A stretch of 64,000 bases of DNA from Patescibacteria group bacterium. GTDB taxonomy: Bacteria; Patescibacteriota; Dojkabacteria; J137. This document shows, piece by piece, positions 28,944-64,000 of the stretch. Location of the stretch: assembly GCA_963169855.1 (NCBI GenBank), contig CAUJCN010000002.1, forward strand, positions 645,608-709,607. The letters run 5' to 3'. The translations under genes were made by a program, and so were the position numbers. Within the stretch, counting starts at the first letter, position 1. The number at the start of each line of letters is the position of its first letter. A model generated the notes under the pieces. The model was not told the origin of the DNA, searched no databases, and saw nothing but the letters and a program-made list of their open reading frames with translations.

Positions 28944-29018
28944 TCCTTGATAGCTCAATGGTGGAGCAGCCCGCTGTTAACGGGAAGGTTGCAGGTTCGA
29001 GTCCTGCTCGAGGAGCCA
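28944..29018 (+). tRNA. tRNA-Asn (anticodon GTT), CCA encoded
   Basis: Manual fold: acceptor TCCTTGA/TCGAGGA (one G-U), D-arm GCTC..GAGC, anticodon loop CTGTTAA, T-arm GCAGG-TTCGAGT-CCTGC, GCCA 3' end. Confidence 0.85.
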
Positions 29019-29125
29019 TGAAAAATCTTCAAACTTAAGTTCACAAAATCTAGAATATAATTTAATCTCAGGACGAGAAGCCTGTCTTCCGAAGCGAAGC
29101 GTAGGGAGAAGTCCTGCTCGAGGAG
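29000..29125 (+). repeat. 26-bp direct repeat of the tRNA-Asn 3' end (AGTCCTGCTCGAGGAGCCATGAAAAA) at 29000-29025 and 29100-29125; att-like
   Basis: Exact 26/26 match 100 bp apart; the first copy is the tRNA 3' end itself. Confidence 0.7.
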
Positions 29126-29246
29126 CCATGAAAAAGAAAAATTAAAATCGAAAAGGCGAGAAGATGAAAATTTTTAAGATGTAGGATTAGAAAATCTCCA
29201 AGCAGTAACTACTATTCAACTCAAGACGAATTCCAAAGATGCAAAG

Positions 29247-44593: not shown

Positions 44594-46249
<1,656 letters not shown>

Positions 46250-46285
46250 GTTACTACGCCAAGGCTTCGTAACCTGACTAAGAAA

Positions 46286-46320
46286 AGATCCCGTCCGCCA
46301 TTGGCGGGCGGGATCTTTTG
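46286..46320 (+). terminator. rho-independent terminator after groEL
   Basis: GATCCCGTCCGCC-ATTG-GCGGGCGGGATC followed by TTTTG. Confidence 0.7.
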
Positions 46321-46432
46321 ATCTATAATTCGTTTTCACCTTTTGTTAACCCCGCATCTAGTGAGGGATCTTAATGATTTTGCTACCTCCGCAACAGGTG
46401 CGGGGTTGTAAGGATTTTGCTACAATAGGTGC

Positions 46433-46753
46433 ATGAAGAGATATCTAATCGATCCTATTTACTGGTATTTTGCCGTGTTCTTTAGAGATTTCGCTCAACG
46501 AAATTTTGTGAATCAGTACATTTTCTTTTTGAACAAGACGAACACAATTCCTATGGCAAAAAATCTTTTTGTTCCAATCTATAGAGACGAAAGTAGCATG
46601 GGGAAAGCAATCGGATTTATAATCAGATTTTTGTGGATTGGGTACGGAAGTGTAGTTTCATCAATAAAAATAATTCCATTTCTGTTATTTTCAGCTTTAG
46701 TTTTTGTACTTCCTATCGTGGGAGTTCTTTTGATTTTAAGTTCAATTTTCTAA
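46433..46753 (+). CDS. small hypothetical membrane protein (106 aa)
   Basis: ORF with C-terminal TM; stop overlaps start of the next gene (TAATG). Confidence 0.3.
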   Translation: MKRYLIDPIYWYFAVFFRDFAQRNFVNQYIFFLNKTNTIPMAKNLFVPIYRDESSMGKAIGFIIRFLWIGYGSVVSSIKIIPFLLFSALVFVLPIVGVLLILSSIF

Positions 46754-49302: not shown

Positions 49303-49435
49303 AAGGCTAAAAGATGAAAATTCCCAATCTGAAGTATTCAACTCACCGCACTTCGCCCATTGCTTACGACTCACAGCTCACAGCTCAATGCTCCAAGCTT
49401 GCACTTTAAACTTCACCCATATACAATAAGTTTAT

Positions 49436-49786
49436 ATGAAAAAATTCTATATCTTTTTAGCTACTTATTTAACAATCTTTACTTCTAAAGTTTCTGCTAC
49501 TGGAGGAGGCTTTGTTCAAATCCCCAACCCAACACCGATAGATTCATTAGAAGAGCTTGTTACAATGGTTGCAAGGCTTATTGTTCCTGTTTTCATTCTA
49601 ACTTTCTTGGCGATGTTACTGTACGGAGCTTTCGTTTACCTAACAGCTCAAGGTGATGATGCAAAAGTAGAAAAAGCAAAGAAAATAATAGTAACTGCAA
49701 TAATAGGATTTGTTTTAGCAGTTTTAGCTCCATCAATCGCAAACATAGTTGCTGGAATTCTTGGAGTAGAGGGTATCACTTTCTAA
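49436..49786 (+). CDS. VirB2/TrbC-like pilin paralog 1
   Basis: Signal peptide, TM1 (LIVPVFILTFLAMLLYGAFVYL), charged loop TAQGDDAKVEKAKK, TM2 (IIVTAIIGFVLAVLAPSIANIV). Confidence 0.55.
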   Translation: MKKFYIFLATYLTIFTSKVSATGGGFVQIPNPTPIDSLEELVTMVARLIVPVFILTFLAMLLYGAFVYLTAQGDDAKVEKAKKIIVTAIIGFVLAVLAPSIANIVAGILGVEGITF

Positions 49787-49788
49787 TT

Positions 49789-50418
49789 ATGAAAAATTTA
49801 CTGTTTTTAGTTATAGCCTTCATTTTTGTATTCCCTCTGTTTAGTCCAAGGGTAAATGCTCTTACTGCAGATCCAGATGTCTGTCTTCCACCACACGGAA
49901 TTCCATCTATGTGTCAGGATTCCTACACATTAGATAATAAATGTAATGTAGCAAGAATCATTAACCCAGAGGTTGATTGTTGTATTAACAAATGTACTAA
50001 CATTGATAATGGTTACGACCCAGATGCAGAATGTTCTGGTCCAGGAGATCCTGACTGCGATGTTACATCAGTACTTAATAGTCTAAATATTTTTGGAACT
50101 AAAATTCAGTACTCAAATGAAAAGATTCCATCTTTAGTTCAATTAGGTTTATCTGCATTTTTAGCAGTAGTTTCTTTTTACGCATTATTTAGAGGAATGT
50201 ATTTGTATTCAATCAAGAGAACTCAAACAACAGATGCTGCAGAAATAGGGAAGATCAACAAAGAATTTGGAAATATTATTATTGGATTTGTACTCGCATG
50301 GTCAGCAATCTTTATTGTAGAATTAGTAATGAGAATATTGGGTTTACCAACACTAACTCAAATTACATTAGAGCGAATCGACGATGGAAGTGCTTCAAAT
50401 GTAATTATTATTAAATAA
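49789..50418 (+). CDS. VirB2/TrbC-like pilin paralog 2 with Cys-rich extracellular N-domain
   Basis: Signal peptide; about 100-aa domain with 10+ Cys; TM1, loop TQTTDAAEIGKINKEFG, TM2. Confidence 0.5.
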   Translation: MKNLLFLVIAFIFVFPLFSPRVNALTADPDVCLPPHGIPSMCQDSYTLDNKCNVARIINPEVDCCINKCTNIDNGYDPDAECSGPGDPDCDVTSVLNSLNIFGTKIQYSNEKIPSLVQLGLSAFLAVVSFYALFRGMYLYSIKRTQTTDAAEIGKINKEFGNIIIGFVLAWSAIFIVELVMRILGLPTLTQITLERIDDGSASNVIIIK

Positions 50419-50419
50419 A

Positions 50420-50953
50420 ATGAAACTGAAAATATTTTTAACAACTGTAATTGGATCCCTAATGTTGAATGCAACTGTTCTTGCTCAAGGACTTGATCCA
50501 TTAGAGAATACAGGATTGGGTTTAGATGAAATCAAAATCCCGATATTTCCCGTCTTGTTCACAGATTTATCCAGATACAATACTGTTTTATCCTGGATAA
50601 CTTTTGCAGGAGGACTTCTTGTTTCTGGAATAATTATATTCTGGATTTACAGAATTATTCGATCTGGTTTAAAAGCGATGTCTGCGGAAGGAGATTCTGA
50701 GAAAATTGGTGTGGCTAGAAAAGAGTTGCAAGCTGCGCTAACTGGAATCGCATTTACATTTTTGGTTCCAATAGTTTTAAGTTTTGTTGGAATTATTTTT
50801 GGATTTGGAACAATGTTCGAATGGCCAAAGTCATTCTCAGGTTGCCAGGATACAAGTAAATATCAATATTATTTTCAGGCACTTGCTCAGGAGCCGAACG
50901 AAGAGGCAGCTGATCGAGAATGTAATCCTGATTTAGCAGATACAGATAGATAA
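50420..50953 (+). CDS. VirB2/TrbC-like pilin paralog 3
   Basis: Signal peptide; TM1 (LLVSGIIIFWIY), loop MSAEGDSEKIGVARKELQ, TM2. Confidence 0.5.
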   Translation: MKLKIFLTTVIGSLMLNATVLAQGLDPLENTGLGLDEIKIPIFPVLFTDLSRYNTVLSWITFAGGLLVSGIIIFWIYRIIRSGLKAMSAEGDSEKIGVARKELQAALTGIAFTFLVPIVLSFVGIIFGFGTMFEWPKSFSGCQDTSKYQYYFQALAQEPNEEAADRECNPDLADTDR

Positions 50954-50954
50954 T

Positions 50955-51308
50955 ATGGACTTATGTCAGTTTATTGGTTGTGATGTTGTTGGAGATGAGA
51001 ACTATCTCCTAAACTTTGGAAATATTATTCGAATGGGATTGAATATTATTTTCGGTGCCATTATTGTTTACGGAATTTTCATCATCATCAAAGCTGTTTA
51101 CAAAATTGTAGGAAGTGAAGGAGACGCGGGTAAAGTAGAGTCGGGACTAAACTCAATAAAAGGAGTGTACATAGGAATCGTTATGATTTTCGTGGGATTG
51201 ATTGGACTTGTTATTTTATTCGCATTGTTCAATATAACAGAACTTCCTGGAAATCCTGGACTACCAGGTTCAGACGAAGGTCCTGTAATCAACGACCCTT
51301 TCAACTAA
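50955..51308 (+). CDS. VirB2/TrbC-like pilin paralog 4
   Basis: TM1 (LNIIFGAIIVYGIFIIIKAV), loop GSEGDAGKVESGLNSIKG, TM2; G/P-rich tail. Confidence 0.55.
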   Translation: MDLCQFIGCDVVGDENYLLNFGNIIRMGLNIIFGAIIVYGIFIIIKAVYKIVGSEGDAGKVESGLNSIKGVYIGIVMIFVGLIGLVILFALFNITELPGNPGLPGSDEGPVINDPFN

Positions 51309-51442
51309 TATCCAACTTTAAACTTACAATCTTTATTCATATTCCTCTTGAATTTAGAAATTCGATATTAGAACTTACTTGTATCCTTGTATCTTCAGAT
51401 CTTTTCTTATAGAATGATGAAAATAGATATTAAAGATAATTT

Positions 51443-51913
51443 ATGAAAAAACTATTAGGCTCTCTCGCTGCAGTGCTTTTCTTTGTAGCTACTCCGCTAG
51501 TTAACACAGTTAGTGCACAAGATAATTTAATTTGTACAGTATTCCCATTTTTAAAGAATATTGGAGCATTCGGTATTAGCAACATCTGTGGAGGATTAAC
51601 AGATGAACAGCCAATTAACGAAGCAAGAAACTTAATTCAATTCGGATTAAATCTTGTATTTGTTGGAATTATTATCTTGGCAATTTACATAATTGTAAAA
51701 GCTGCCATTAACTACATCAGAAGTGAAGGAGATGATGAGAAGATCAAAGCTGCTAATAAATCAATTAAAGCAGTGTTCACAGGAATTATCGCTTTATTCG
51801 TTGGCATTTTAGGAATCATTTTGGTTCTTGCAATTTTCAACGCAACTGGAGCAGTAAATAATGATTTACCTGAAGGAAACTTTTTAGACCAAGATAATTT
51901 CGGTCCACAATAA
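51443..51913 (+). CDS. VirB2/TrbC-like pilin paralog 5
   Basis: Signal peptide; TM1, loop RSEGDDEKIKAANKSIKA, TM2. Confidence 0.55.
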   Translation: MKKLLGSLAAVLFFVATPLVNTVSAQDNLICTVFPFLKNIGAFGISNICGGLTDEQPINEARNLIQFGLNLVFVGIIILAIYIIVKAAINYIRSEGDDEKIKAANKSIKAVFTGIIALFVGILGIILVLAIFNATGAVNNDLPEGNFLDQDNFGPQ

Positions 51914-51915
51914 AA

Positions 51916-52653
51916 ATGAAATTTGTACGATTTCTAATCACAATAGGAATCATATTCCAAATAGTAGTGAGTCCTGTAAATGCCCAAATACAGGACTCTC
52001 CTTTTTCAGGAAATGATGCAAGTTCTTATCAATGTTTCGATAAGAACGGTCAGCCTGTAATTGACGATGGAGTTCCTCCACCATTAATTGTTAAAGATCC
52101 AAATTTAGATGTTTTCATTTGCGATACTAACGGAAACGGAGTATTAGATGCAGATGAATTAAGAGCTGTTCTTATTCCACCTAAACTTCAAGCAATCGAA
52201 GTCTGGTTTGTAAGAATTATTTATGTAGCTTGGGCTTTAGTTGGAGCATATTCATTTTACTTGTTAGTAGCCTTAGGTTACCAAGTAATGATTTCCAGAG
52301 GAGACCCAACATCTCTGCCAAAAGTTCGACAAAGAATTATCAATTTTATAATTGGATTTGCGTTAGTGTTCCTTGCAGTTCCTATCCTAGACACATTCTT
52401 CAGATTGTTAGGAATTAACAAGACTGTAAGTTGTTACGATGTTCAAATGCCAGGATTCCAATTCTTCTTTACAACACTTTGTAGCGGTAGCGATCCTTGC
52501 GCATTCACAGAAGCAGAAATTGGCGATGGAATTGTATGTCCTATTAGAAATGAATCTGTAAGGTGTAGTAGAGGAACAGAAAATTTCCTTTACGTTTGCG
52601 ATAACGATAGGCAAGTCTGGACTGGTGGAAGAACTGGTACTGGAGGAATTTAA
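51916..52653 (+). CDS. VirB2/TrbC-like pilin paralog 6 with Cys-rich N- and C-terminal extracellular regions
   Basis: Signal peptide; TM1, loop SRGDPTSLPKVRQR, TM2; C-terminal about 90 aa with 9 Cys. Confidence 0.5.
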   Translation: MKFVRFLITIGIIFQIVVSPVNAQIQDSPFSGNDASSYQCFDKNGQPVIDDGVPPPLIVKDPNLDVFICDTNGNGVLDADELRAVLIPPKLQAIEVWFVRIIYVAWALVGAYSFYLLVALGYQVMISRGDPTSLPKVRQRIINFIIGFALVFLAVPILDTFFRLLGINKTVSCYDVQMPGFQFFFTTLCSGSDPCAFTEAEIGDGIVCPIRNESVRCSRGTENFLYVCDNDRQVWTGGRTGTGGI

Positions 52654-52658
52654 GAATT

Positions 52659-54149
52659 ATGGAACTAAAAATAAAGTCTTACAAAATTGGTGAATCCACG
52701 CACATAGACGATTTTACAATCGTTAGTCCTTTTGTGGATCTTGTTCAAGAACTGAAAAATATCGAAACACTTATTCCAGGAAACGAAGTTAGGGAAATAA
52801 TTTTGACAATTGAAAACGAACCAATAATAATTAAAAAAGATGGGGAAGCTCAATCTGTAGATATTGTTTTCAAGGACAAAACTTTCGAAACGCTTGAAGA
52901 CTTATTCAAGGAAACATTTAATATTCAATTTCTACTAAACGAATGGGCTGGTAGTTTTATAGACGCATCATTAGAAGGTTTCGAGGATCAACAATCTTTA
53001 TCAGATTATATTTCAGCACTAGAACAATCAGACGATCAAATCATAAATGAAGCTCAGCTTGGTGTGGATCAATTGATCTCTCAAACTAATGAATCGGCAC
53101 CGGAAGATGCAAAAATACATTTGTTCAAAATCCAAGAACTAGGTCAAAAGATAAACGAATCGGATCAGAAACTCAGAGCATTTAACTCATATCAAAAAAA
53201 CTTAGATAAAAGAAAAATGATTAGGGATAACATTCAAAGAGAAAAAGAAAGATTAGTTCAGATTGCAACAGGATCAAAAGACTTAATTGAATCTAAATCA
53301 AAACTGCAAAACGAAATTACTGTAATGCTTGGGGGAGATAATCTCGATCAATTAAAACAAAAAACTGAACAAGTTAAGCAGAGCAGACTTTCAAAGCTTT
53401 TTGGGTATCTTACCGATACGACCTCAATGTATAAATTTGAAGAGGAAGAAAAAGAAAGAAAATTACGAATTCCTAAAGCGTTCGTAATTTTGCTTCTTAC
53501 TCAAACCCTTGCTTCTGTAGCAATGTTTTTCTTTACTGCAGATTTAATCGTGTTCCTGTACATGGTTTTATCTTATGTAGTGATAATTACTGCAGGAATT
53601 ATTTTCCAAATCTACTCTTTTGATCGATTAGGAACAATTGAGGGATTTGTAGAGGAAACAAAAACTAAGAAATTCAGTTTTAAGAACGATTCTTCTGAAG
53701 AAAAGTATTTGATTAAAAATGCATGGGTTGATGCTTTGAGTAAAGACTTGCAGGAAGTTGACAGATCGCTTTCCGTGAGATTAGGAAATACAACTTACGA
53801 TGAACTTCAGAACAAACTAACGAACTTAGAAAAAGATTCTGCGAATTTGAGTGATGAATTAAAAAAGATGGAATCTGAAAAAATGGATCAGGATGATTAC
53901 TATAAATTTAGAAGAGAGTTCGATATTTTCACAATCGAAAGAGAGAACCTGCTCGAGAATCTGAAGGGAAAGATAGACAATCAAGTGTTGGAGAATATAA
54001 AATATACAATAGCACAAATTGACGAGGCTAGGCGTGAAGCCGATAAACCAAAATTAAAGTTGCCTTTTATTATTTTTAACCTAAAGGAAAAGAATCAGTG
54101 GACAAAGGATATCGTGGCGAAAAACAATCAAATACTCTTCATAGAATAG
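52659..54149 (+). CDS. coiled-coil protein with two central TM helices (cluster component)
   Basis: ORF; heptad-rich, TMs AFVILLLTQTLASVAMFFF / LYMVLSYVVIITAGIIFQIY. Confidence 0.4.
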   Translation: MELKIKSYKIGESTHIDDFTIVSPFVDLVQELKNIETLIPGNEVREIILTIENEPIIIKKDGEAQSVDIVFKDKTFETLEDLFKETFNIQFLLNEWAGSFIDASLEGFEDQQSLSDYISALEQSDDQIINEAQLGVDQLISQTNESAPEDAKIHLFKIQELGQKINESDQKLRAFNSYQKNLDKRKMIRDNIQREKERLVQIATGSKDLIESKSKLQNEITVMLGGDNLDQLKQKTEQVKQSRLSKLFGYLTDTTSMYKFEEEEKERKLRIPKAFVILLLTQTLASVAMFFFTADLIVFLYMVLSYVVIITAGIIFQIYSFDRLGTIEGFVEETKTKKFSFKNDSSEEKYLIKNAWVDALSKDLQEVDRSLSVRLGNTTYDELQNKLTNLEKDSANLSDELKKMESEKMDQDDYYKFRREFDIFTIERENLLENLKGKIDNQVLENIKYTIAQIDEARREADKPKLKLPFIIFNLKEKNQWTKDIVAKNNQILFIE

Positions 54150-55906
54150 TTGCCCTTATTCTCGTTTTTGTATCAGCAACTTCTCCTGTACTTGCTAGAA
54201 GTTCATCTGAAATTGGACAAGACATTATCGACAAGCAAAACGAGATTGCTGCCAATCAAGAAAGACTTAAACAATCCGAAGCAAATAAAGCTTATTACGA
54301 ATCTGAATCTGCAAATCTGGCAGATGGAGTTCCTAAGCTAGAAGCTCAATTAAAAAAATTAGAAGAAGAGTTGAATGGAATAAAACTGGAAATTAGTATT
54401 TTAGAACAGCAACAAAAGTTAAAGGAACTCGAAAGAGAGCGAACACAGTTTGCTCAAAACGAAACTATTAAAGGCTCGTACATGGATTGGAAAAGTACCA
54501 GTCACGACGTAAGAATGTTTATTGACGAAGAGATAGATTTCTTAAAAATTCAGCAATATCAAAGCACAATTGCAGGAAATCAAGGTAAAAGCATTGATAA
54601 TCTAACGAATGAGTTAATCAAAATCGACGGTGAGATGACGGTGCTTGCTCAAAAGAAACAAGAGTTGGATGCGAAGCAGTTAGAAATTTCTGAACAGAAA
54701 AGACAACTCGAGGAACGATTGAATCAATTGAAATGGGGAGCTTTGGCAGAAGCAGGAAACATCACAGCATTGGGCTCTTCGATTAAACAGGCGGTGGCAG
54801 ATATTGCAGTGCTTTCAGCAGAACAAAGGGCGGCTTTAATTAGAGAGCAGGAGATTCAACAGAACAACCCAGGTTTACAAAATTCAGCGGGATGCGACGG
54901 TGCTTCGGTTCCTACAGGAAGTTTCTACTTCTGTGGAAATGGAAGAGATTTGTATCAAGGACACGGAGTTGGAATGAGTCAATACGGAGCTAAAGGAGCT
55001 GCTCAGAAAGGCGAATCAGCAGAAAGTATTTTGAATTTCTACTACTACGGAGCTACTGTTTCTACAATTGCAGAACCAGCAGAGATTTCAATCACGTATT
55101 GCCAAGGGAGTTCTTGGTTGGCAGAAACTTACAACAACTGTAACTATAATGGAAGTAATTACGGCCCAGTTATTACGGAAAGAATTGCATTAGTTGATTA
55201 CTTGGGAGGTTTAGGAGAAATGCCGTACAGTTGGCCTGAAGAAGCAAGAAAAGCTCAAATGATTGCAGCTAGGACATATGCTTTACGAAGAACAAACAAC
55301 GGAGATCCTAATTATCCAATTTGTTTGACTGCATCTTGCCAAGTCTCTAAAGTCAAATCGGGAGAAAATTATGAAAGACCTTTGGCAGTTGCAACCGCAG
55401 GAAAAGTTATTTTGCACAACGGTGGCTACATTGATGCTTTGTATTCTGCTGATAATAGTCAGAATGCTGGAACCGCAGATTGCGGAACTAGATTCCAAGA
55501 TGTTTATGGAAATCCAAACTTCGGGTGCGGTCCATATCTGGTTTCTGTAAACGATAATCATTGGGCATGGGACTCTAGAATGTACGGATGTTCTGCTAAT
55601 GGAGTAGCAACTCCTTGTGGTTTATGGCCTTGGAAAACAAGAACTTATACATATGCTCAATTCGATGAATTCTTAACTTGGGTTAGAGGAAATCTTTACT
55701 GGGAATTTGCTTCTGTAGGAAATACAACATATATTAGCTTTGAAAGAGATGCTTCTGGTAGAATCAAGAGAGCTAATATTCTAGGAACTGGAGGTTCGCT
55801 TTCAGTTGGAGGTTGGTGGTTCAAGAATGCTTGGATCGAATGGACTGCAGCTAGAGGAGAATATGATTATCTTTACAGTCAAACTTTAAATGTTGTTCAA
55901 CTATAA
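54098..55906 (+). CDS. SpoIID/LytB-domain peptidoglycan-remodelling protein with signal peptide and coiled-coil N-region
   Basis: GHGVGMSQYGAKGAAQKG and AQMIAARTYALRR (SpoIID/LytB family motifs). GTG start at 54098 overlaps the upstream gene; a signal-peptide-like segment IVALILVFVSATSPVLA follows. Confidence 0.75.
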   Translation: MDKGYRGEKQSNTLHRIVALILVFVSATSPVLARSSSEIGQDIIDKQNEIAANQERLKQSEANKAYYESESANLADGVPKLEAQLKKLEEELNGIKLEISILEQQQKLKELERERTQFAQNETIKGSYMDWKSTSHDVRMFIDEEIDFLKIQQYQSTIAGNQGKSIDNLTNELIKIDGEMTVLAQKKQELDAKQLEISEQKRQLEERLNQLKWGALAEAGNITALGSSIKQAVADIAVLSAEQRAALIREQEIQQNNPGLQNSAGCDGASVPTGSFYFCGNGRDLYQGHGVGMSQYGAKGAAQKGESAESILNFYYYGATVSTIAEPAEISITYCQGSSWLAETYNNCNYNGSNYGPVITERIALVDYLGGLGEMPYSWPEEARKAQMIAARTYALRRTNNGDPNYPICLTASCQVSKVKSGENYERPLAVATAGKVILHNGGYIDALYSADNSQNAGTADCGTRFQDVYGNPNFGCGPYLVSVNDNHWAWDSRMYGCSANGVATPCGLWPWKTRTYTYAQFDEFLTWVRGNLYWEFASVGNTTYISFERDASGRIKRANILGTGGSLSVGGWWFKNAWIEWTAARGEYDYLYSQTLNVVQL

Positions 55907-56545
55907 ATGAATCCTGCTTATAACCCAGATGCAAAAAAAATGATGATGATCCAGAAAATGGATCAAATTGTACCTAAATCTAACTTAGGATTTTTTGGGT
56001 CTGTTCAATATAGACCAAAAATGAGTTTTGAAGGTCAAAATAGAAACGAGAAAGTTTACATCATGGCAAGAAGACACTGGTTAACTAATATTGGATGGAT
56101 TTTCAACAACTTCATTTATCTTTTGATTCCCGTTATAGCGGCTTTGATATTAAATATTTTTGATACAAGGCTTCCAGAATTAAACAGACAAATCTATGCA
56201 GTGATTGTTCTAGGATACTACTCATTTGTTTTTACGAACATGTTTAAGAACTTTATTGATTGGTATTACGATATTTACTTTGTAACAAACGAAAAAGTTA
56301 TGGACGTTATTTTCAAGCCTTTTGCTTCTTATCAAATCGAAGAAATTCCTTTGGTCAGCATAGAAAGTGTGAGAGAAAAAACTCCTGGAGTATTGGCATC
56401 ATTATTCAACTATGGGAATATTACAATAACTACCGAAGCAAACGACAGAACTATGATATTCCCATACATTTCTCGACCTACAAAGGTTAGAGATATTATT
56501 TCAGACTTAGCTTTTGTGGCTAGATCATTCAACAATGGAAATTGA
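55907..56545 (+). CDS. membrane protein with bacterial PH (bPH_2/YdbT-like) domain
   Basis: Two TMs followed by YDIYFVTNEKVMDVIFKPFASYQIEEIPLVSIESV...GNITITTEA pattern. Confidence 0.5.
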   Translation: MNPAYNPDAKKMMMIQKMDQIVPKSNLGFFGSVQYRPKMSFEGQNRNEKVYIMARRHWLTNIGWIFNNFIYLLIPVIAALILNIFDTRLPELNRQIYAVIVLGYYSFVFTNMFKNFIDWYYDIYFVTNEKVMDVIFKPFASYQIEEIPLVSIESVREKTPGVLASLFNYGNITITTEANDRTMIFPYISRPTKVRDIISDLAFVARSFNNGN

Positions 56546-56753
56546 TTTAACGGCGATAATTGGACTGGTAAAAATATTTGCAATAGTAGTTGCTTTATTT
56601 CATTTGCTTGCAGGATTGTTTATCACAAGGCAAATTACAAGAATGAACAGGATAGTAAAAACTCAAAATGGAGTATTCATTTTTTTTGTTGCTGTCGGAT
56701 ACCTGATTTTACTTTCAGTAGTTCTACTGCTAATTATTACAATTCCTGTTTAA
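56514..56753 (+). CDS. small two-TM membrane protein
   Basis: ORF only. Confidence 0.3.
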   Translation: MWLDHSTMEIDLTAIIGLVKIFAIVVALFHLLAGLFITRQITRMNRIVKTQNGVFIFFVAVGYLILLSVVLLLIITIPV

Positions 56754-56783
56754 GAATTTTTAAAAATTCTATATACTGAACAT

Positions 56784-59627
56784 ATGGCAATTAAAGCAGA
56801 CTTTATAACCGGTAAACAAACTTTTGGAAATTGGGCGAGAGTATTCGCCTTTGTTCCTGAGGATCAATCAGGAAAAGAAATGTTTGTAGTGGCTAAGATC
56901 TACGTGGATAGTGATGAATTCAATCTTGATAATGCAGGAAAACTTCTTTTAGACGAACTTCAAGGAATCTATTTCACCGATACAAAGGAATACGCGGACC
57001 AAGTTAGTAGACTTGAAAACGCACTTTGGAAAATGAAAGGAAAGATGGAGTATATTCTTTCTAAAGAAGAATCTCTTGTACAAAAAGGTTTAGATATAGA
57101 ATTAGCAGTTGTAGTTTATGATGAAAGTTTTGCTTATGCAGCGATTGTAGGAGAGAGTAGAATTAAGATTTTCAGAGAAGGAAAACTAATTGATATTACA
57201 GAAGCACTTTCAGACGCTGCAGATTCTGGATTCTTCAAAACAGGAAGTCTAGAATTAGATGAAAACGACAGATTATTCTTGATCACATCTCAAGCATCAA
57301 AAGAGTTTGCAGATAAAGAATTGACTTATGGAGCAAGTGTATTAGCTTTCGACAAATTAAAAGCAGCTTACCCGGAATCTTCAGAAGGTACAGCAATGAT
57401 GATGGTTTACAAGGATTCAGCAATTCCTCTAGAAGTAGAAGAAGAGTCTGAAGTTGCTGCCGATCTTTCAGAGGAGGAAATTGAATCTAATCCTAGCCAA
57501 CTTGCTGGAAACAAACCTAGCGCATCTACAGCCCCAAATTTTGGTAGAGAAACAATGTCTGCAGTAACAGAAGTTTCTAGAATGACTATGTTCGGAGAAA
57601 AACTAAAAATGTTCTCTTCAATTGCAAAAGAAAATTTAGTTAAAGCAGGAAATTTCACAAAAGGAAAATTGATTGTATTAAAAGACAAAGTTATAGAATT
57701 AAACAACAAGAGACAAGGTAGAGAAGTTGAACAATTTGAAGAAGAATCTGAAGGAGAATACGAAACTATTCCTACTCAGGCTCCTGGGCAAAGAAGAGTC
57801 GCAGCAACACTTCCTGTTGTTCCTGCAGCAACTTCAAGATTAGATGATGAAGAAGGAGAAAACTTAGATTATTCTGATCCTGCAGTTAATGATTCTCAAA
57901 CAACTGAAGTTCCTCAAGAAGAGAACTCAGAGCTAGTTTCTGAACAACCTGTAGAACAGGCAGAAGTAAATCCATACGAAGAAATGGAATCTCATAATTT
58001 AAATGATGAATCGATTCACGAAGAATACGGGGAAGAACTACAGGCAGTAGATACACAAAGCAGATTAAATGATGAAGAGTACGAAGAGGATTACGAAGAT
58101 GAGGGATCACAGGAATTTGAAGATGAATCAGCACCAATGCCAGCAGTTCAACAAAGAATGATGCAGAGAAATATTTCTCAAGAACCGCAAGGTCTAAAAG
58201 ATAATGTATTAGGAAGAGTTTCTGGAGTTAAAGAAAAACTAACTGGATTCTATCAGAATAAATTAGGAAAGAATGGGGGAAGTACTATCTCAACAATATT
58301 CCAAAACATTCTTTCAATTCTACGAGAACTTATTACGAATGGAATTGAATTATTCAAAAAAGAAATTTTGGGAGTTGGAGATAACAGAAGAGACAGATTA
58401 ACTAGAGCAAAAAGAAGACGAAGAAACAGAATCATTTTGATTATCATAGTGATTGTTCTGTTTATCGTAATCACAAATTCGATTAGAAGTGCTCAAGAAG
58501 CTAGGGCTCAACAAGAACAATTAGATACAGCGAAATCAAAACTTACAGATTTCCAAAGCACTTATAGAACTTTGGACGCGAAAGTAAGTACAGCTAAAGC
58601 TGGTGGAGATGTTGGAAAGCAAAACTTGATCGCAGATCTAGACAGATTAAATGCAGAAATCAATGTTCAAAAACGAGATGGATTATTAGTCGATGATTTA
58701 AATACAGTTCAAAAGAATATCGAAACTACAAAAGACAAAGTATTAGATGTTGTTTCAATCACAACACCACAAGTTCTAGTTGATGTAGGAAAGAGTTATC
58801 CTGATGCGAATTTAGCAGATATTGAATACTCAAATGGAGGAGTCTACATTGCAGACCAAGGAAGAAACTTGATTTACAGAGTAGCAACAGCTTCGTTAAA
58901 TGGAGTTCCTCAGAGTTTTGTTTCTGGATTAGCTCAGCCATATGCTTTGGTTAGAAATGTAGATGGAGATATTATTTTCTACGATAACGATACAAGCTCA
59001 GCAATGGGAGTATTCGAATACGACAAAGAAAATAGCTTGAGTAGATACCCAGGATTATCAGCAAGTAGTATTGGAAAAGTTACTGAATCTTCATTGTTCA
59101 GTGGAAATAATTCACTTTACGAAGTAAGAGGATCAACAAGTCAGATTTTCAAAAGAGATCAAACAGGAGGAAGTTACGTTAGTGGAGGAGCAACTCAATC
59201 GGGAGAATTTAACACAAACTGGAGAGTAGACCCAGACTTTACGAACGCTGTTGATATCGCAACACCATACGAGATTTACGTGTTAATCAAAGGACAAGGA
59301 ATTAAGAGATACTTTGCAAGAGAAGCAAATACTTTGACAACAAACTTGTTATCAAATATTTCTCAGGCAGATATCAGTGCTGTTCAAAATGGATCATCAC
59401 TTGATGTAGTGGATTCATTTGTAGCTGTGGGAGATCCTGCAAACAAGAGAGTATTCTTGTTCAGAATTGATGATACAAACGAGAAAGGCTTAACTTTGAT
59501 TAAGCAATATGTTTACAGAGGAAATGAGAATGTATTTACAGATTTAGATGAGATTGTAATTGTGCCAAACGAAAGTGCATTGTATGTTCTTGATAATTTG
59601 AAGGTGATTAAATTACCTTTACAATAA
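56784..59627 (+). CDS. large (947 aa) multi-domain protein: N-terminal PP2C-like (probably inactive) domain, acidic linker, TM, coiled coil, C-terminal beta-propeller-like region
   Basis: LAVVVYDESFAYAAIVGESRIKIFREGKLIDITEA...DENDRLFLITSQ resembles a PP2C/SpoIIE fold with DSR changed to ESR; E/D-rich 220-330; TM IILIIIVIVLFIVITNSI. Confidence 0.4.
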   Translation: MAIKADFITGKQTFGNWARVFAFVPEDQSGKEMFVVAKIYVDSDEFNLDNAGKLLLDELQGIYFTDTKEYADQVSRLENALWKMKGKMEYILSKEESLVQKGLDIELAVVVYDESFAYAAIVGESRIKIFREGKLIDITEALSDAADSGFFKTGSLELDENDRLFLITSQASKEFADKELTYGASVLAFDKLKAAYPESSEGTAMMMVYKDSAIPLEVEEESEVAADLSEEEIESNPSQLAGNKPSASTAPNFGRETMSAVTEVSRMTMFGEKLKMFSSIAKENLVKAGNFTKGKLIVLKDKVIELNNKRQGREVEQFEEESEGEYETIPTQAPGQRRVAATLPVVPAATSRLDDEEGENLDYSDPAVNDSQTTEVPQEENSELVSEQPVEQAEVNPYEEMESHNLNDESIHEEYGEELQAVDTQSRLNDEEYEEDYEDEGSQEFEDESAPMPAVQQRMMQRNISQEPQGLKDNVLGRVSGVKEKLTGFYQNKLGKNGGSTISTIFQNILSILRELITNGIELFKKEILGVGDNRRDRLTRAKRRRRNRIILIIIVIVLFIVITNSIRSAQEARAQQEQLDTAKSKLTDFQSTYRTLDAKVSTAKAGGDVGKQNLIADLDRLNAEINVQKRDGLLVDDLNTVQKNIETTKDKVLDVVSITTPQVLVDVGKSYPDANLADIEYSNGGVYIADQGRNLIYRVATASLNGVPQSFVSGLAQPYALVRNVDGDIIFYDNDTSSAMGVFEYDKENSLSRYPGLSASSIGKVTESSLFSGNNSLYEVRGSTSQIFKRDQTGGSYVSGGATQSGEFNTNWRVDPDFTNAVDIATPYEIYVLIKGQGIKRYFAREANTLTTNLLSNISQADISAVQNGSSLDVVDSFVAVGDPANKRVFLFRIDDTNEKGLTLIKQYVYRGNENVFTDLDEIVIVPNESALYVLDNLKVIKLPLQ

Positions 59628-59651
59628 TTAGAATTCAATTTAGCTTAGACA

Positions 59652-59699
59652 GATCCCGCTATGGTTCGAGTGCCTCACCATGACTGCGGGATCTTTTTT
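59652..59699 (+). terminator. rho-independent terminator
   Basis: GATCCCGC...GCGGGATC stem with inner ATGGT/ACCAT stem, then TTTTTTC. Confidence 0.7.
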
Positions 59700-59752
59700 C
59701 TACTCAGTGTATTACGCAATCATGTTATTATTATGCATATCAATAAATAAGA

Positions 59753-60208
59753 TTGAAGACTTTAAGCACAAACAAAAAAGCATATTTTGATTACGAAATT
59801 CTGGATAAGTACGAAGCTGGAATAGAACTGTACGGCTGGGAAGTAAAGTCAATTAAAAGCACAAACTTCAATATTGCTTCCGCATATGTAACTCCAAGAG
59901 ACTACGAGATGCTTCTTGTGGGAATGCGAGTAGGACTATTAAAAGAGTCGTTCACTCAAGATAAGAATTTAGAAACAAGAAATCGAAAACTGCTTTTAAA
60001 TAAAAATGAAATCTTTCAAATAGTTTCTAAAACGAAAACCAAAGGACTTACGATCGTTCCACTGGAAGTATATTTAAATGACAGAGGCTACATTAAAGTT
60101 TTAATTGGAACAGCAAGAGGAAAGAAGAAATACGAAAAGAAAGACAAGGTTAAGAATAGAGACCTAGTAAAAGATTTGGAACTAGATAGGAAGCAGTACA
60201 ATTTCTAA
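59753..60208 (+). CDS. smpB: SsrA-binding protein SmpB
   Basis: KKAYFDYEILDKYEAGIELYGWEVKSIK, LLLNKNEI, basic C-terminal tail; TTG start. Confidence 0.85.
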   Translation: MKTLSTNKKAYFDYEILDKYEAGIELYGWEVKSIKSTNFNIASAYVTPRDYEMLLVGMRVGLLKESFTQDKNLETRNRKLLLNKNEIFQIVSKTKTKGLTIVPLEVYLNDRGYIKVLIGTARGKKKYEKKDKVKNRDLVKDLELDRKQYNF

Positions 60209-60893: not shown

Positions 60894-63353
60894 ATGCAAT
60901 CAGATATAATAGGAACTATTCTCATAGCGGCACTAATATTAGTACTAGTGATAGTGCTGATTTTCAGTATCTATTCATGGCTTCTTGATGAACTAAAAGA
61001 AAGAGTATTGATGGATAAATCTTTGAATCTTGTTTTCTACGAAATCAAATTAACCAAAAACAACGATGTAGAAATTAAGGCTATGGAACAATTGTTCTCT
61101 GGTTTAACAGGTTTTGCAGAAGATCTGAAAGGAGTAAAGCAATTCATTGGAGCTAGAACTTTTGTCAGTTTCGAACTAGTCGCTTATTATCAAAGTATTA
61201 GATTCTATGTTGTTTGCCCAAAAAAGATTTCCAGTGTTGTAGATAGATTGATTAACGGAACTTACCCAAGTGCAGAAATTCTAAAAGTTAAAGAATACAA
61301 TTTATTCCCAGATAGTGGTCATGTTTCTTACGGAATTCTAGAGCACGATAAAGATTGGAAAATCCCAATTCAAACTTATGAAGAATTACCTGTTGATAGT
61401 TTAGCTACGCTTACAGATGTAATGAGTAAACTAGGTCCAGGTGAATCCGCATGTTTCCAATTAGTTATCGCACCAGCTGGAGGAGGGTGGATTAATAAAT
61501 CTAAGGAGTACGCAAAAAAGATTAGAGAAGATGCACAACCAAAAGAAGCTAAGGAGGGAGAAAAAGCTCCTAAGCCACCAAAGCAGAAAGTTCCAGACGA
61601 AACTCTTCAGTTGATCGAAAGAAAAGCAGAAAAGAACGGATTCTTTTCAGATTTAAGAATTGTAGTTTGTTCTCCAGACAAATTTTCTAGTGAAAACCAC
61701 ATGACTAATATCGTTAGTACATTCGACCAATTCTCTAAGATTGGAGGAAACAAACTAAAAAAAGTAAAGATGAAAAAAGCTGCAGATAGAGCTAAGTACA
61801 AGAATATTGCTAGAGATGTAATCTACAGAATTCCAAGAAGCAAAGCAGTTTTAAATGCAGCAGAACTAGCTACTCTTTATCACTTGCCTAACAAGAATAT
61901 TCAAGCTCCGCATATCAAATGGATGATTTCTAAGAAACTTCCAGCACCAGACTTTACAGTTAATACATGGGAAAAAGATTACATGTATATTGGAAAGAAT
62001 ACTTTCCGAGGTTCAGAAAAAGAAATCTTCTTAAAACCAGATGCAAGACTAAGACACTTCTATATCATCGGACAAACTGGATCTGGTAAATCTGGATTTA
62101 TGTTGAGTATGATGGTTCGAGACATCAAGATGGGACATGGGTGTGCGTATATCGATCCACACGGTTCAGATGCAGATAAAGTTCTTCAACAGATTCCACC
62201 AGAGAGAATAGAGGACGTGATTATTTTCGACCCTTCAGATATAGAAAGACCTTTAGGATTAAACATGTTGGAATTTAAAACTCCTGCTCAAAAGACTTTG
62301 GTTACAAACGAAATGTTGAACATCTTCGATAGTTTATACAACTTGAAAGTAACTGGAGGACCTATGTTCGAACAGTACTTCAGATATGGAATTATGCTTT
62401 TAACAGAAGATATCGAATCAGGATCAACTTTATTAGAAATTCCTAAGCTCTTCGCAGACGAAGGTTATAGAAACTACAAACTTTCGAAATGTAAAGATCA
62501 GGAAGTTATCGATTTCTGGAGAAAGCAAGCGGAAGCAGCAGGAGGAGAAGCATCGCTAAAAAACATCGTTCCTTATGTTGTTTCTAAACTTGCACCATTC
62601 TTAACAAACGCTTATCTTAGACCAATTGTTGCTCAGCAGAACTCTACAATCGATTTTAGAGATATTATGGATAACAAAAAAATCCTGATCGCAAAGTTAT
62701 CTAAAGGTAGAATCGGAGAATTAAACGCAAACTTATTAGGAATGATCTTAATCGGTAAATTGTTAGTAGGCGCGTTAGAAAGAGACGATATTCCAGAAGC
62801 AGACAGAATTCCTTTCTACTTATACATCGACGAGTTCCAAAACTTCTTAACAGATGGAATTCAAATCATTCTTTCTGAAGCTAGAAAATACAAGTTATCT
62901 TTGACTATTGCTCACCAGTTCTTAGGACAGTTAACAAGACAAGGAGGAGACACAAAGATTAAAGATGCTGTATTCGGTAACGTTGGTAACAAAGCAATCT
63001 TCAGAGTTGGAGAAGAAGATTCACCATTCTTAAGAAAAGTATTAGACGGAGATTTAGAAGAGTCTGATTTACAACAGGCGGAAAACCTTACAGCATTTAC
63101 AAAAATCCAGGTTGATGGAAAACCTACCCCAGCATTCACGCTTAGAGCGGTTTACGGCGAGTCTCCATACGATATGATGACAGAACCTAACCCACAGCTT
63201 GCGGACTTAATTAGACAGATCTCAAGGCTAAAATATGGCAAAGATATTAGCCTTATAGAGAATGAAGTTAAGTTAAGAGGAAGCTTTATTAAAGAGAAGA
63301 CCGAGGAAGCTAAGAAACCAGGCGGAATGTTTGGTGGATTCCCTGGGTTTTAA
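60894..63353 (+). CDS. VirB4/TrbE-like type IV secretion ATPase (P-loop, FtsK/HerA superfamily) with N-terminal TM
   Basis: Walker A IIGQTGSGKSGF at about residue 397 of 820, followed by AYIDPHGS; Walker B FYLYIDEFQNF; AHQFLGQL. Size and motif positions fit VirB4 rather than VirD4. Confidence 0.65.
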   Translation: MQSDIIGTILIAALILVLVIVLIFSIYSWLLDELKERVLMDKSLNLVFYEIKLTKNNDVEIKAMEQLFSGLTGFAEDLKGVKQFIGARTFVSFELVAYYQSIRFYVVCPKKISSVVDRLINGTYPSAEILKVKEYNLFPDSGHVSYGILEHDKDWKIPIQTYEELPVDSLATLTDVMSKLGPGESACFQLVIAPAGGGWINKSKEYAKKIREDAQPKEAKEGEKAPKPPKQKVPDETLQLIERKAEKNGFFSDLRIVVCSPDKFSSENHMTNIVSTFDQFSKIGGNKLKKVKMKKAADRAKYKNIARDVIYRIPRSKAVLNAAELATLYHLPNKNIQAPHIKWMISKKLPAPDFTVNTWEKDYMYIGKNTFRGSEKEIFLKPDARLRHFYIIGQTGSGKSGFMLSMMVRDIKMGHGCAYIDPHGSDADKVLQQIPPERIEDVIIFDPSDIERPLGLNMLEFKTPAQKTLVTNEMLNIFDSLYNLKVTGGPMFEQYFRYGIMLLTEDIESGSTLLEIPKLFADEGYRNYKLSKCKDQEVIDFWRKQAEAAGGEASLKNIVPYVVSKLAPFLTNAYLRPIVAQQNSTIDFRDIMDNKKILIAKLSKGRIGELNANLLGMILIGKLLVGALERDDIPEADRIPFYLYIDEFQNFLTDGIQIILSEARKYKLSLTIAHQFLGQLTRQGGDTKIKDAVFGNVGNKAIFRVGEEDSPFLRKVLDGDLEESDLQQAENLTAFTKIQVDGKPTPAFTLRAVYGESPYDMMTEPNPQLADLIRQISRLKYGKDISLIENEVKLRGSFIKEKTEEAKKPGGMFGGFPGF

Positions 63354-63551
63354 AATAAATTTCAAATACCAAAAACCAAATTTCAAAATCACACTTCCTA
63401 ATATCCAATTCACTACGCATTTGATATAATTTCGGGACTAAGGTTTTTAGATCCACAGTTCTTTAAAAAAGTGAGATTTTAAATAATAGACCCTAGGCTC
63501 ATATAATGAGCAGTTCTTTCCTTGCTGAGGAATGAATCACGTAAGTATAGT

Positions 63552-63625
63552 AGGCCTTTAGCTCAGGTGGTTAGAGCACAGTTCTTATAAAGCTGGGGTC
63601 CGCAGTTCGAGTCTGCGAAGGCCTA
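63552..63625 (+). tRNA. tRNA with anticodon TAT (tRNA-Ile2-like, UAU); no encoded CCA
   Basis: Manual fold: acceptor AGGCCTT/AAGGCCT, D-arm TAGCTCAGGTGGTTAGAGC, anticodon stem CAGTT/AGCTG with loop CTTATAA, T-arm CGCAG-TTCGAGT-CTGCG. Confidence 0.7.
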
Positions 63626-63649
63626 CTATACTTATTCTTGATTCCGAAG

Positions 63650-63730
63650 TTAAAGCTATGGTCCGGAGTTCAAGTCTGCGAAGGCCTATTATTTGAGTTT
63701 AACTCTTTTCTTTTTAAAGCTGGGGTTCAG
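63650..63730 (+). repeat. degenerate direct copies of the tRNA 3' half (63650-63688: TTAAAGCTATGGTCCGGAGTTCAAGTCTGCGAAGGCCTA; 63714-63730: TTAAAGCTGGGGTTCAG)
   Basis: Compare tRNA 63584-63626 ATAAAGCTGGGGTCCGCAGTTCGAGTCTGCGAAGGCCTA. Confidence 0.65.
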
Positions 63731-63827
63731 TACTTATCACGCTCATCTGTGAGCAGTAATTCCTGAAATTCAAGATTTGATACTTCAAATTTCAGATTTT
63801 GAATTTCGAACGAAGTGAGTTAGATTT

Positions 63828-64000
63828 CTTTCAAGCCTCTAAATTCTTTTTCTTTATACTTCTTGCTCAATAGCTCGATGTATCTTTCTGTTGTAGCTAA
63901 AGATTTGTGACCAATGATTGCAGATAATTCTTTTACAGGAACACCGTTAGATAATTGAAACACCAAGAACGCATTTCTAAAATCGTTGACACTAGCTCCT
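63828..64000 (-). CDS. tyrosine recombinase/phage-type integrase, C-terminal part (gene continues beyond window)
   Basis: Reverse-strand translation ...NAFLVFQLSNGVPVKELSAIIGHKSLATTERYIELLSKKYKEKEFRGLKEI*: LGH.s...T..Y motif containing the catalytic Tyr. Confidence 0.75.

Follow-up and report, generated by a model that had tools for sequence, protein, structure and literature searches.

Concentric relics of tRNA-Ile genes at a conserved recombinase locus of Patescibacteria

The right-hand edge of a 64,000-nucleotide stretch of a Dojkabacteria genome (Patescibacteria; contig CAUJCN010000002.1, positions 645,608 to 709,607; hereafter the window) carries a live tRNA-Ile gene with the anticodon TAT, partial copies of that tRNA and the end of a minus-strand tyrosine recombinase gene. 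We found partial copies on both sides of the live gene, in the order A5'-B5'-live tRNA-B3'-A3', and by their sequences they are the outer shells of two dead tRNA-Ile genes around the live one. The locus itself is, as gene order indicates, a deeply conserved chromosomal neighbourhood of a Microgenomates-type Patescibacteria genome. Taken jointly, we lean towards a conserved chromosomal locus with a resident recombinase and no genomic island, at which two cassette insertions have replaced tRNA-Ile.

Results

Partial tRNA copies enclose a live tRNA-Ile(UAU) gene

ARAGORN called the tRNA-Ile gene at 63552-63626 and Rfam at 63552-63625 (61.8 bits, E=1.8e-12), in agreement with the tRNA(TAT) that a preliminary description of this DNA had noticed at the window edge. 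The gene encodes no CCA. It is framed by a perfect inverted repeat (63542-63558 and 63618-63634; 17 nt, 100%) composed of the acceptor stem and 10 extra base pairs, and the minimum-free-energy fold of this cassette retains the long stem. The parts of the nest are these:

63442-63470, plus strand: A5', oldest 5' relic (AGGTTTTTAG..ATCCACAGTTCTT-TAAA); score 28 against a shuffle maximum of 26, p<0.002
63481-63532, plus strand: B5', putative 5' half of the middle copy (leader plus AAATAAT/AGACCCTAGGCTCATATAATGAGCAGTTCTT...GCTGAGG); p ~0.006, collinear alignment to leader plus tRNA
63542-63634, plus strand: C, the live cassette, with tRNA-Ile(UAU) at 63552-63625 within the perfect 17-bp inverted repeat
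63651-63692, plus strand: B3', 3' half of the middle copy; tRNA positions 37-74 and four trailer bases
63708-63730, plus strand: A3', oldest 3' relic; tRNA positions 31 to about 50, T arm lost

Relic alignments were compared with 200 shuffles, whose maximum score was 26, and a second significance test supplied p values; neither of the two flanking control segments gave a tRNA signal in the same significance test. B3' matches the live tRNA at 37 of 42 positions (88%), with an alignment score of 56 (p<0.002). When a 21-mer of the tRNA 3' end was sought with up to three mismatches, it occurred in the 64 kb only at the live tRNA and at B3' (0 expected). The core of A3' (63708-63726) corresponds to tRNA positions 31-48 and includes an exact TAAAGCTGGGGT; its score of 26 equals the shuffle maximum, with p ~0.002 in the second test. 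Both 3' pieces had been noted in the preliminary description, as a degenerate copy of about 39 nt (63650-63688) and a 17-nt fragment (63714-63730). The former is real and extends over 42 nt, and the latter is real and weaker.

That earlier reading had overlooked the 5' pieces upstream and the 17-bp inverted repeat around the tRNA. A5' stops in the anticodon loop, its D arm is incomplete, and it is still fused to a promoter-like box in the register of the tRNA of a relic-free relative (L007, below). In B5', the D-loop now reads TATAAT and lies inside a hairpin (63497-63511). The B leader AAATAATAGACC is complementary to the B trailer GGCCTATTATTT, forming an inverted repeat of 12 nt (92%), and both are homologous to their counterparts in C, with a compensatory change: the leaders read ATAAT/AGACC in B and ATAGT/AGGCC in C, the trailers GGCCT/ATTAT in B and GGCCT/ACTAT in C.

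Decay rises outward through the nest. Neither outer copy is detected as a tRNA, and their acceptor 5' strands have decayed (AGGTTTT, AGATTTC) with loss of pairing. All break points of the window copies fall in the anticodon arm, and partner halves overlap by about 10 nt (tRNA positions 31-40 for A5'/A3', ~37-47 for B5'/B3'). Gaps of 25 nt and 82 nt separate the live tRNA from the two 3' relics; about 118 nt (63533-63650) separate B5' from B3' and 237 nt (63471-63707) separate A5' from A3', neither interval containing an open reading frame (ORF). Since both 3' relics are matched by 5' halves on the other side of the live gene, the inserted DNA would be the ~100-300 bp between the halves, and the layout is not the classic attL-island-attR.

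At E<=1 over 62000-64000, Rfam returned the live tRNA alone, with no group I intron and no other family. An outer tRNA interrupted by an intron was dropped on this ground and because decay has reached the acceptor 5' strands of the outer copies. We also rejected simple tandem duplication, because TRF found no tandem array and the flanks are unrepeated beyond ~10 nt of each copy. The window agrees with independent Logan contigs from several runs (0 mismatches), which speaks against an assembly artefact in the relic region. Of two short Logan contigs belonging to other runs, one ends at 63547, 5 nt before the tRNA, and one begins at 63589, in the anticodon loop; these ends could reflect strain heterogeneity at the cassette or merely low coverage.

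No island lies to the right of the recombinase

Readable sequence comprised ~65 kb of the source genome and 12-kb slices of other genomes, with tRNAs called by ARAGORN and Rfam, domains by Pfam and NCBIfam, and tandem arrays by TRF. A public contig, L001, matches the window exactly over at least 11 kb and extends 1,239 nt past its end. The collections held four close relatives only (L006, L007, L008 and L009).

The preliminary description had placed an integrated element to the right, beyond the window, with the recombinase as its integrase. On L001 this flank consists of the complete 284-aa recombinase, a divergent 125-aa ORF and then the contig end inside tRNA-fMet; in L006 and L008 the same order carries on with tRNA(CAT) and FtsH. 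No tRNA-Ile fragment was found right of the recombinase, whether in the 1.2 kb that L001 adds or in the relatives' continuation, and GC content in the right flank is 0.33-0.35 against 0.36 for the window. With this gene content, no tRNA-Ile fragment and no GC shift, the flank contains no element body. Nothing is integrated to the right of the recombinase; the flank is made of housekeeping genes conserved in relatives.

Other hallmarks of an island were equally missing. No distal 3' repeat bounds a kilobase-scale insert in the 64-kb window plus 1.2 kb, the right flank holds neither cargo genes nor a compositional shift, and the recombinase is present at the relic-free sites of L007 and L008, where an island integrase should be missing. 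The checks that the preliminary description had proposed thus went against it: the search past 64000 produced no distal att copy, GC did not shift, and comparison with relatives revealed a conserved Xer-type chromosomal recombinase, the very outcome it had named as speaking against an island.

The 125-aa ORF has an N-terminal membrane helix, a coiled coil and an AR..GE motif. It had no match in Pfam or NCBIfam and may be DivIC/FtsB-like.

The recombinase is probably a resident, divergent Xer-type enzyme

The recombinase and the remaining features near the nest are:

63820-64000, minus strand: recombinase C-terminus, 60 codons ending in ...GASVNDFRNAFLVFQLSNGVPVKELSAIIGHKSLATTERYIELLSKKYKEKEFRGLKEI and the stop; full gene 63820-64674 on L001
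60894-63353, plus strand: DUF8128/TraG-D_C ATPase gene, 819 aa, membrane-anchored P-loop; conserved left neighbour of the tRNA
63419-63441, plus strand: promoter-like box, CATTTGATATAATTTCGGGAC(T/A)A; shared without change by the window, L006, L007 and L008
63764-63807, no strand: AT-rich imperfect palindrome with AAATTTCARAT-type motifs; similar motifs at 63357-63390

The minus-strand frame at 63820-64000 confirmed the tyrosine recombinase C-terminus reported earlier. The full protein combines a SAM-like N-domain (Pfam PF02899/PF13495) with PF00589 Phage_integrase (4e-26) and aligns over its full length to NCBIfam XerD (residues 9-273), XerA (8-275) and XerC (9-272). Its NCBIfam scores of 125, 119 and 116 bits are well below the XerC/XerD/XerA equivalog cut-offs of 330, 220 and 335. 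The closest solved structures are archaeal XerA (4a8e, 5hxy) and E. coli XerD (1a0p). It matches generic PHROG 'integrase' families, the best phage-encoded homologue has 29.5% identity, and a metagenome scan with the protein retrieved relatives at 31% identity or less only.

Among the catalytic residues, the two Arg (TGVRISEL and NDFR), the His of GHKS and the Tyr of TERY are present. In the HxxR box, the leading His has become an Asn that is invariant in 19 aligned family members (VNDLRHTF), and in this genus the next His is also Asn (VNDFRNAF; residues ~229-236, in the 63970-63990 region of the window). The recombinase therefore appears, on sequence comparison, to belong to a divergent Xer-type family that lies below curated cut-offs and has an altered active-site His.

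The gene occupies the same position in relatives with and without relics, which argues for a resident chromosomal gene and against the island integrase of the preliminary description. Nor did the locus resemble an integron platform: IntI-type models match partially (57.6 bits against a cut-off of 265), the tRNA copies are nested and not arrayed, and recombinase orientation relative to the tRNA is not fixed among loci. We identified no dif-like site, and no conserved palindrome adjoins the recombinase gene in the window or in L006-L008. Cumulative GC skew is still climbing at the window end. The palindrome at 63764-63807 is missing from L006, L007 and L008 and specific to the source genome; as a dif-like or inversion site it was rejected on that ground.

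Recombinase and tRNA linkage is conserved across Patescibacteria

Scanning one genome per GTDB species revealed at least 544 relatives of the recombinase, and 80 of these loci were fetched (L008-L087). By record title, almost all relatives come from Microgenomates-type Patescibacteria (Levy-, Shapiro-, Dojka-, Curtiss-, Gottesman- and Daviesbacteria). A tRNA-Ile(TAT) lies within 3 kb of the recombinase in 45 of 80 loci and a tRNA(CAT) in 61 of 80, with one or the other in 71 of 80; where 6 kb could be read on both sides (n=38), the counts are 29 and 34. By our estimate, a single-copy tRNA falls within 3 kb of a given gene by chance in less than 1% of ~1-Mb genomes. The linkage is far above this figure, and the synteny of recombinase and tRNA is thus ancient and conserved.

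The typical cluster has one or two tRNA(CAT) genes ~0.3-1.5 kb upstream of the recombinase and tRNA-Ile(TAT) usually downstream. Relative to the recombinase, the tRNA-Ile gene is downstream and convergent in 30 cases, downstream and co-directional in 7, and upstream in 10. A homologue of the DUF8128 ATPase lies within 6 kb of the recombinase in 45 fetched loci. The window follows the order ATPase, tRNA-Ile(UAU), convergent recombinase, membrane/coiled-coil ORF, tRNA-fMet.

The 819-aa ATPase matches Pfam TraG-D_C (1.2e-5) and DUF87, with DUF8128 precomputed for the product, and by these domains it resembles a type IV secretion system (T4SS) coupling protein. The ATG-start version of the product retrieved identical contigs; the look-up with an 822-aa TTG-start version was empty. 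Its stop codon at 63353 lies 198 nt before the tRNA, bearing out the earlier remark that a T4SS-like cluster ends about 200 bp upstream. That cluster region (44618-60208) has GroEL (44618-46249), ClpB (46633-49302), a SpoIID-domain protein and SmpB (59753-60208) as neighbours, and ORFs with a T4SS_pilin domain at 49436-49786 and, as weaker matches, at 50420-50953 and 51916-52653. We considered and rejected an integrative and conjugative element at the tRNA made up of this cluster and the recombinase: the cluster lies 5' of the tRNA, relatives have it in synteny, and genes for GroEL, ClpB and SmpB are scattered through it. These features look like those of a chromosomal region, not of a recently acquired conjugative element.

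Four close genomes carry four different junctions

The recombinase keeps its position in L006, L007, L008 and L009, at 89%, 83%, 82% and 43% identity to the window protein. Protein identity gives the tree ((window, L006), (L007, L008)) with L009 as outgroup, the L007 and L008 recombinases being 98.9% identical. Around this constant gene the junction varies. L007 has the promoter-like box, the tRNA and, 3 nt on, the recombinase stop codon, with no relics. L008, also relic-free, has the promoter and tRNA cassette inverted and a 191-aa ORFan between the DUF8128 gene and the tRNA. In L006 the block is inverted, with a 109-aa ORFan and with 5' and 3' relics flanking the live tRNA, and the window has the direct orientation with relics. 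The promoter-like box touches the tRNA 5' end directly in L007 and L008, and its TATAAT motif suggests that 63419-63441 is a promoter.

The junction is thus a hotspot of rearrangement and insertion, with at least two inversions and two small insertions beside an unchanging recombinase. The preliminary description's serial events at a tRNA hotspot are borne out by more than one generation of relics and by four structures at one junction; its classic 3'-end island arrangement is not. No convincing inverted repeats bracket the inverted segments in the relatives, and neither the 109-aa ORF of L006 nor the 191-aa ORF of L008 matched any family. Between L007 (1382-1545) and L008 (6853-7580), the inverted unit is a promoter plus tRNA-Ile cassette of ~135 nt.

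Partial tRNA copies recur in other genomes and at other tRNAs

Partial self-copies within 700 nt of tRNA-Ile(TAT) accompany 11 of 50 genes, against 1.4 expected from non-cognate flanks. Two-sided nests, in which same-strand 5' and 3' pieces within ~200 nt frame an intact tRNA-Ile(TAT), occur in L006, L009, L042, L052, L065 and L082, with as little DNA between the halves as in the window. They were found with the tRNA 50 nt from the recombinase as well as 2.4 kb away. With other tRNAs also affected, this spread indicates that the relic phenomenon is general among tRNA genes in the lineage and does not require a recombinase gene next door.

The acceptor stem is extended into an inverted repeat of 17 bp in the window, 23 in L006, 20 in L009 and 16 in L042, all with different sequences; in the clean L007 and L008 it reaches only 11. 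A 37-nt perfect direct repeat brackets the live tRNA of L052, whose outer copy has a different acceptor stem. The relics of L006 and L009 carry a hairpin insertion at the same D-loop position, after GGTTAC.

Several other tRNAs show related structures, among them recent small insertions at tRNA 3' ends. In the window, an 84-nt insert separates tRNA-Asn (28944-29018, CCA encoded) from a perfect 26-nt repeat of the tRNA's 3' end and trailer (29000-29025 = 29110-29135). This insert carries ATATAAT, GAGAAGCCTGTC and GCGAAGC mini-hairpins, and no recombinase gene is nearby. In L006 (981-1161), a tRNA(CAT) precedes two 82-nt units, 85% alike, each ending in the last 16 nt of the tRNA. The 12-mer GAGAAGCCTGTC is common to these units and the tRNA-Asn insert but has no other occurrence in the window or the 92 loci, as would fit a family of miniature insertions that settle at the 3' ends of tRNAs.

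Also in L006 (1307-1844), an 84-aa GIY-YIG (homing-endonuclease-like) gene that is not at this site in L008 lies just 3' of tRNA-fMet, bracketed by a perfect 86-nt direct repeat of the tRNA-fMet 3' end and terminator; contigs L001, L002 and L007, from other samples, all end within this tRNA-fMet. L071 (4880-5440) holds a tandem array with assembly gaps upstream of tRNA-Met, its 70-nt units made of the first 17 nt of the tRNA and its D arm, with two hairpins (TCGTCCAAAGGACGA, TCAGCCTTTGGCTGA) breaking the sequence. The pseudo-tRNA pieces of L006, L009, L052 (GTCCGAAATTTCGGAC) and L061 (CCCCGATTAAATCGGGG) contain hairpin or palindrome insertions of a similar kind.

The anticodon of the live gene is itself unusual. 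A genomic TAT anticodon for the AUA decoder is uncommon among bacteria and evidently standard in this Patescibacteria clade. It has been described in Mycoplasma mobile (Taniguchi et al. 2013, PMC3575796), where, as in the window, the AUA decoder has a genomic TAT and is not a CAT tRNA modified to lysidine; in the Patescibacteria clade, unlike the Mycoplasma case, such genes are common, with 50 examples among the fetched loci, and they cluster with a recombinase. The neighbouring tRNA-Met(CAT) of relatives is strikingly close to tRNA-Ile(TAT), scoring 51-65 over positions 8-66, and may be a tRNA-Ile2-type gene.

Discussion

The nest could have formed as follows. The mobile unit would be a tRNA-Ile cassette of ~95-120 bp whose leader and trailer extend the acceptor stem into an inverted repeat of 16-23 bp. 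Such a cassette would enter the anticodon arm of the resident tRNA-Ile gene, splitting it, and would be retained because it supplies the essential function that the split gene has lost. In a second round, a new cassette would enter the previous copy and leave a concentric nest. Tyrosine integrases classically target the anticodon arm; in 2002 Williams reportedly distinguished anticodon-loop and T-loop sublocations of tRNA genes among their sites. Either the cassette itself is mobile and acted on in trans, or larger elements were trimmed with unusual completeness. We infer that the copies arose by insertion rather than by local duplication.

Several observations weigh against such cassette replacement. 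No integrase or element body lies between the halves in any of seven genomes. Scans of viral contigs with the tRNA patterns gave no match, a phage collection gave generic tRNA matches only, and no intact element, free cassette or viral contig with this tRNA was found. Overlaps between 5' and 3' partners range from 0 to 37 nt between genomes, where one site-specific enzyme should give a more uniform length. The significance of B5' is modest, and its assignment draws on a modest score and on its pairing with B3'. Nesting is common to the window, L006 and the distant L009, and this implies either long persistence, by gene conversion or selection, or repeated independent events. Finally, the neighbouring recombinase is no more than a candidate for an enzyme that acts on the tRNA site.

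These points bear directly on the chief rival, a local origin, in which partial duplication, template switching or break repair at a palindromic tRNA gene, together with gene conversion, produced the copies with neither incoming DNA nor a site-specific recombinase. The variable overlaps and the missing donor fit it well, as do the acceptor allele AAGGCCT that the window relics share with the live tRNA and the L009 3' relic, which follows the T stem of its own inner tRNA. Concentric nests with breaks in the anticodon arm are, however, hard to obtain by slippage, leader and trailer form a separate inverted repeat in each generation, L052 has different alleles in its inner and outer copies, and duplication should have left the array or the repeated outer flanks that are lacking here; we consider a local origin rather unlikely. 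The idea that the outer pieces are under selection, as promoter, as leader or trailer structures or as processing decoys of the pre-tRNA, addresses the shared architecture of the window, L006 and L009 despite ~43% recombinase identity, and it does not exclude cassette replacement. The extended acceptor stems covary, B5' offers a promoter-like TTTAAA-18-TATAAT that precedes the live tRNA by 45 nt, and shuffled sequences fold less well than the 265-nt region (z=-3.4). Yet L007 and L008 manage without any such pieces, the outer acceptor 5' strands are decayed and unpaired, the extent varies among genomes, and the origin of the pieces is left unexplained; we judge it quite improbable. Least credible, to the point of being nearly discounted, is the hotspot of the preliminary description, with serial islands entering the tRNA 3' end, the recombinase as integrase and the body of the element on its right. 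It is true that a tyrosine recombinase adjoins a tRNA with repeats of its 3' half, and that the recombinase matches generic PHROG 'integrase' families. Against this stand the conserved housekeeping genes of the right flank, the lack of a distal att copy and of any compositional shift, the 5' partners upstream of the tRNA, and a recombinase that is syntenic in relic-free relatives and in most of the distant family members.

A more specific version of cassette replacement has the cassettes, ~100-120 bp and flanked by inverted repeats, as minimal mobile elements of an undescribed kind, moved in trans by a host tyrosine recombinase, which we hold to be unlikely. The enzyme could be the neighbouring Xer-like recombinase with its His-to-Asn active site, for which AGAGCACAGTT-CTTATAA-AGCTGGGGTCC would be a candidate substrate; the process would recur across Patescibacteria, and the frequent flips of the tRNA cassette beside the recombinase, as between L007 and L008, would be another of its products.

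Whatever their origin, the nests carry a caution for annotation: in Patescibacteria, a tRNA with tRNA fragments and a tyrosine recombinase beside it is insufficient evidence of an island. They suggest that tiny pieces of DNA have repeatedly broken an essential single-copy tRNA gene and taken over from it on the spot; if mobile, such pieces would rank with the smallest self-sufficient elements of the 'replace what you break' sort. They also give a testable target, the anticodon arm, for an uncharacterised recombinase family that is widely conserved in the Candidate Phyla Radiation. The recombinase, the AUN-box tRNAs and the T4SS-coupling-protein-like ATPase together form an unexplained conserved gene cluster. 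As far as our searches show, neither this deep recombinase-tRNA synteny nor the concentric tRNA nests have been described in the literature searched.

Among known systems, the recombinase resembles Xer enzymes (XerA in archaea, XerC/XerD in bacteria) in size, two-domain layout, full-length alignment and vertical synteny; it differs from them in scoring below the equivalog cut-offs, in the HxxR His-to-Asn change and in that no dif-like site was identified. Partial non-canonical tRNA genes of prokaryotes have been reported (bioRxiv 10.1101/2022.07.05.498093). Relics of integrated elements share with the window direct repeats of tRNA segments beside a tRNA gene and breaks in a symmetric stem-loop. 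Classical relics have 3' copies kilobases downstream with an island between, whereas in the window relics of both kinds, 5' and 3', enclose the live gene with spacings of 10-25 nt, and there is no island.

A further parallel is tRNA-dependent lysogeny, in which a host tRNA is split and an incoming tRNA of the same isotype complements it (Guerrero-Bustamante & Hatfull 2024, mBio; PMC10865867). There, as in the window, the split occurs at a short core that belongs to the anticodon region or adjoins it, neither junction restores a working tRNA, and the inserted DNA brings a complete tRNA of the same isotype, in our case between both pairs of halves. The nest thus displays two of the three features of tRNA-dependent integration and lacks the third, an element body with its own integrase. 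In tRNA-dependent lysogeny the insert is a whole prophage with a lambda-type integrase in an actinobacterial host; in the window, by contrast, the halves are ~100-300 bp apart with no ORF between them, and the arrangement is nested twice, in a Patescibacteria host.

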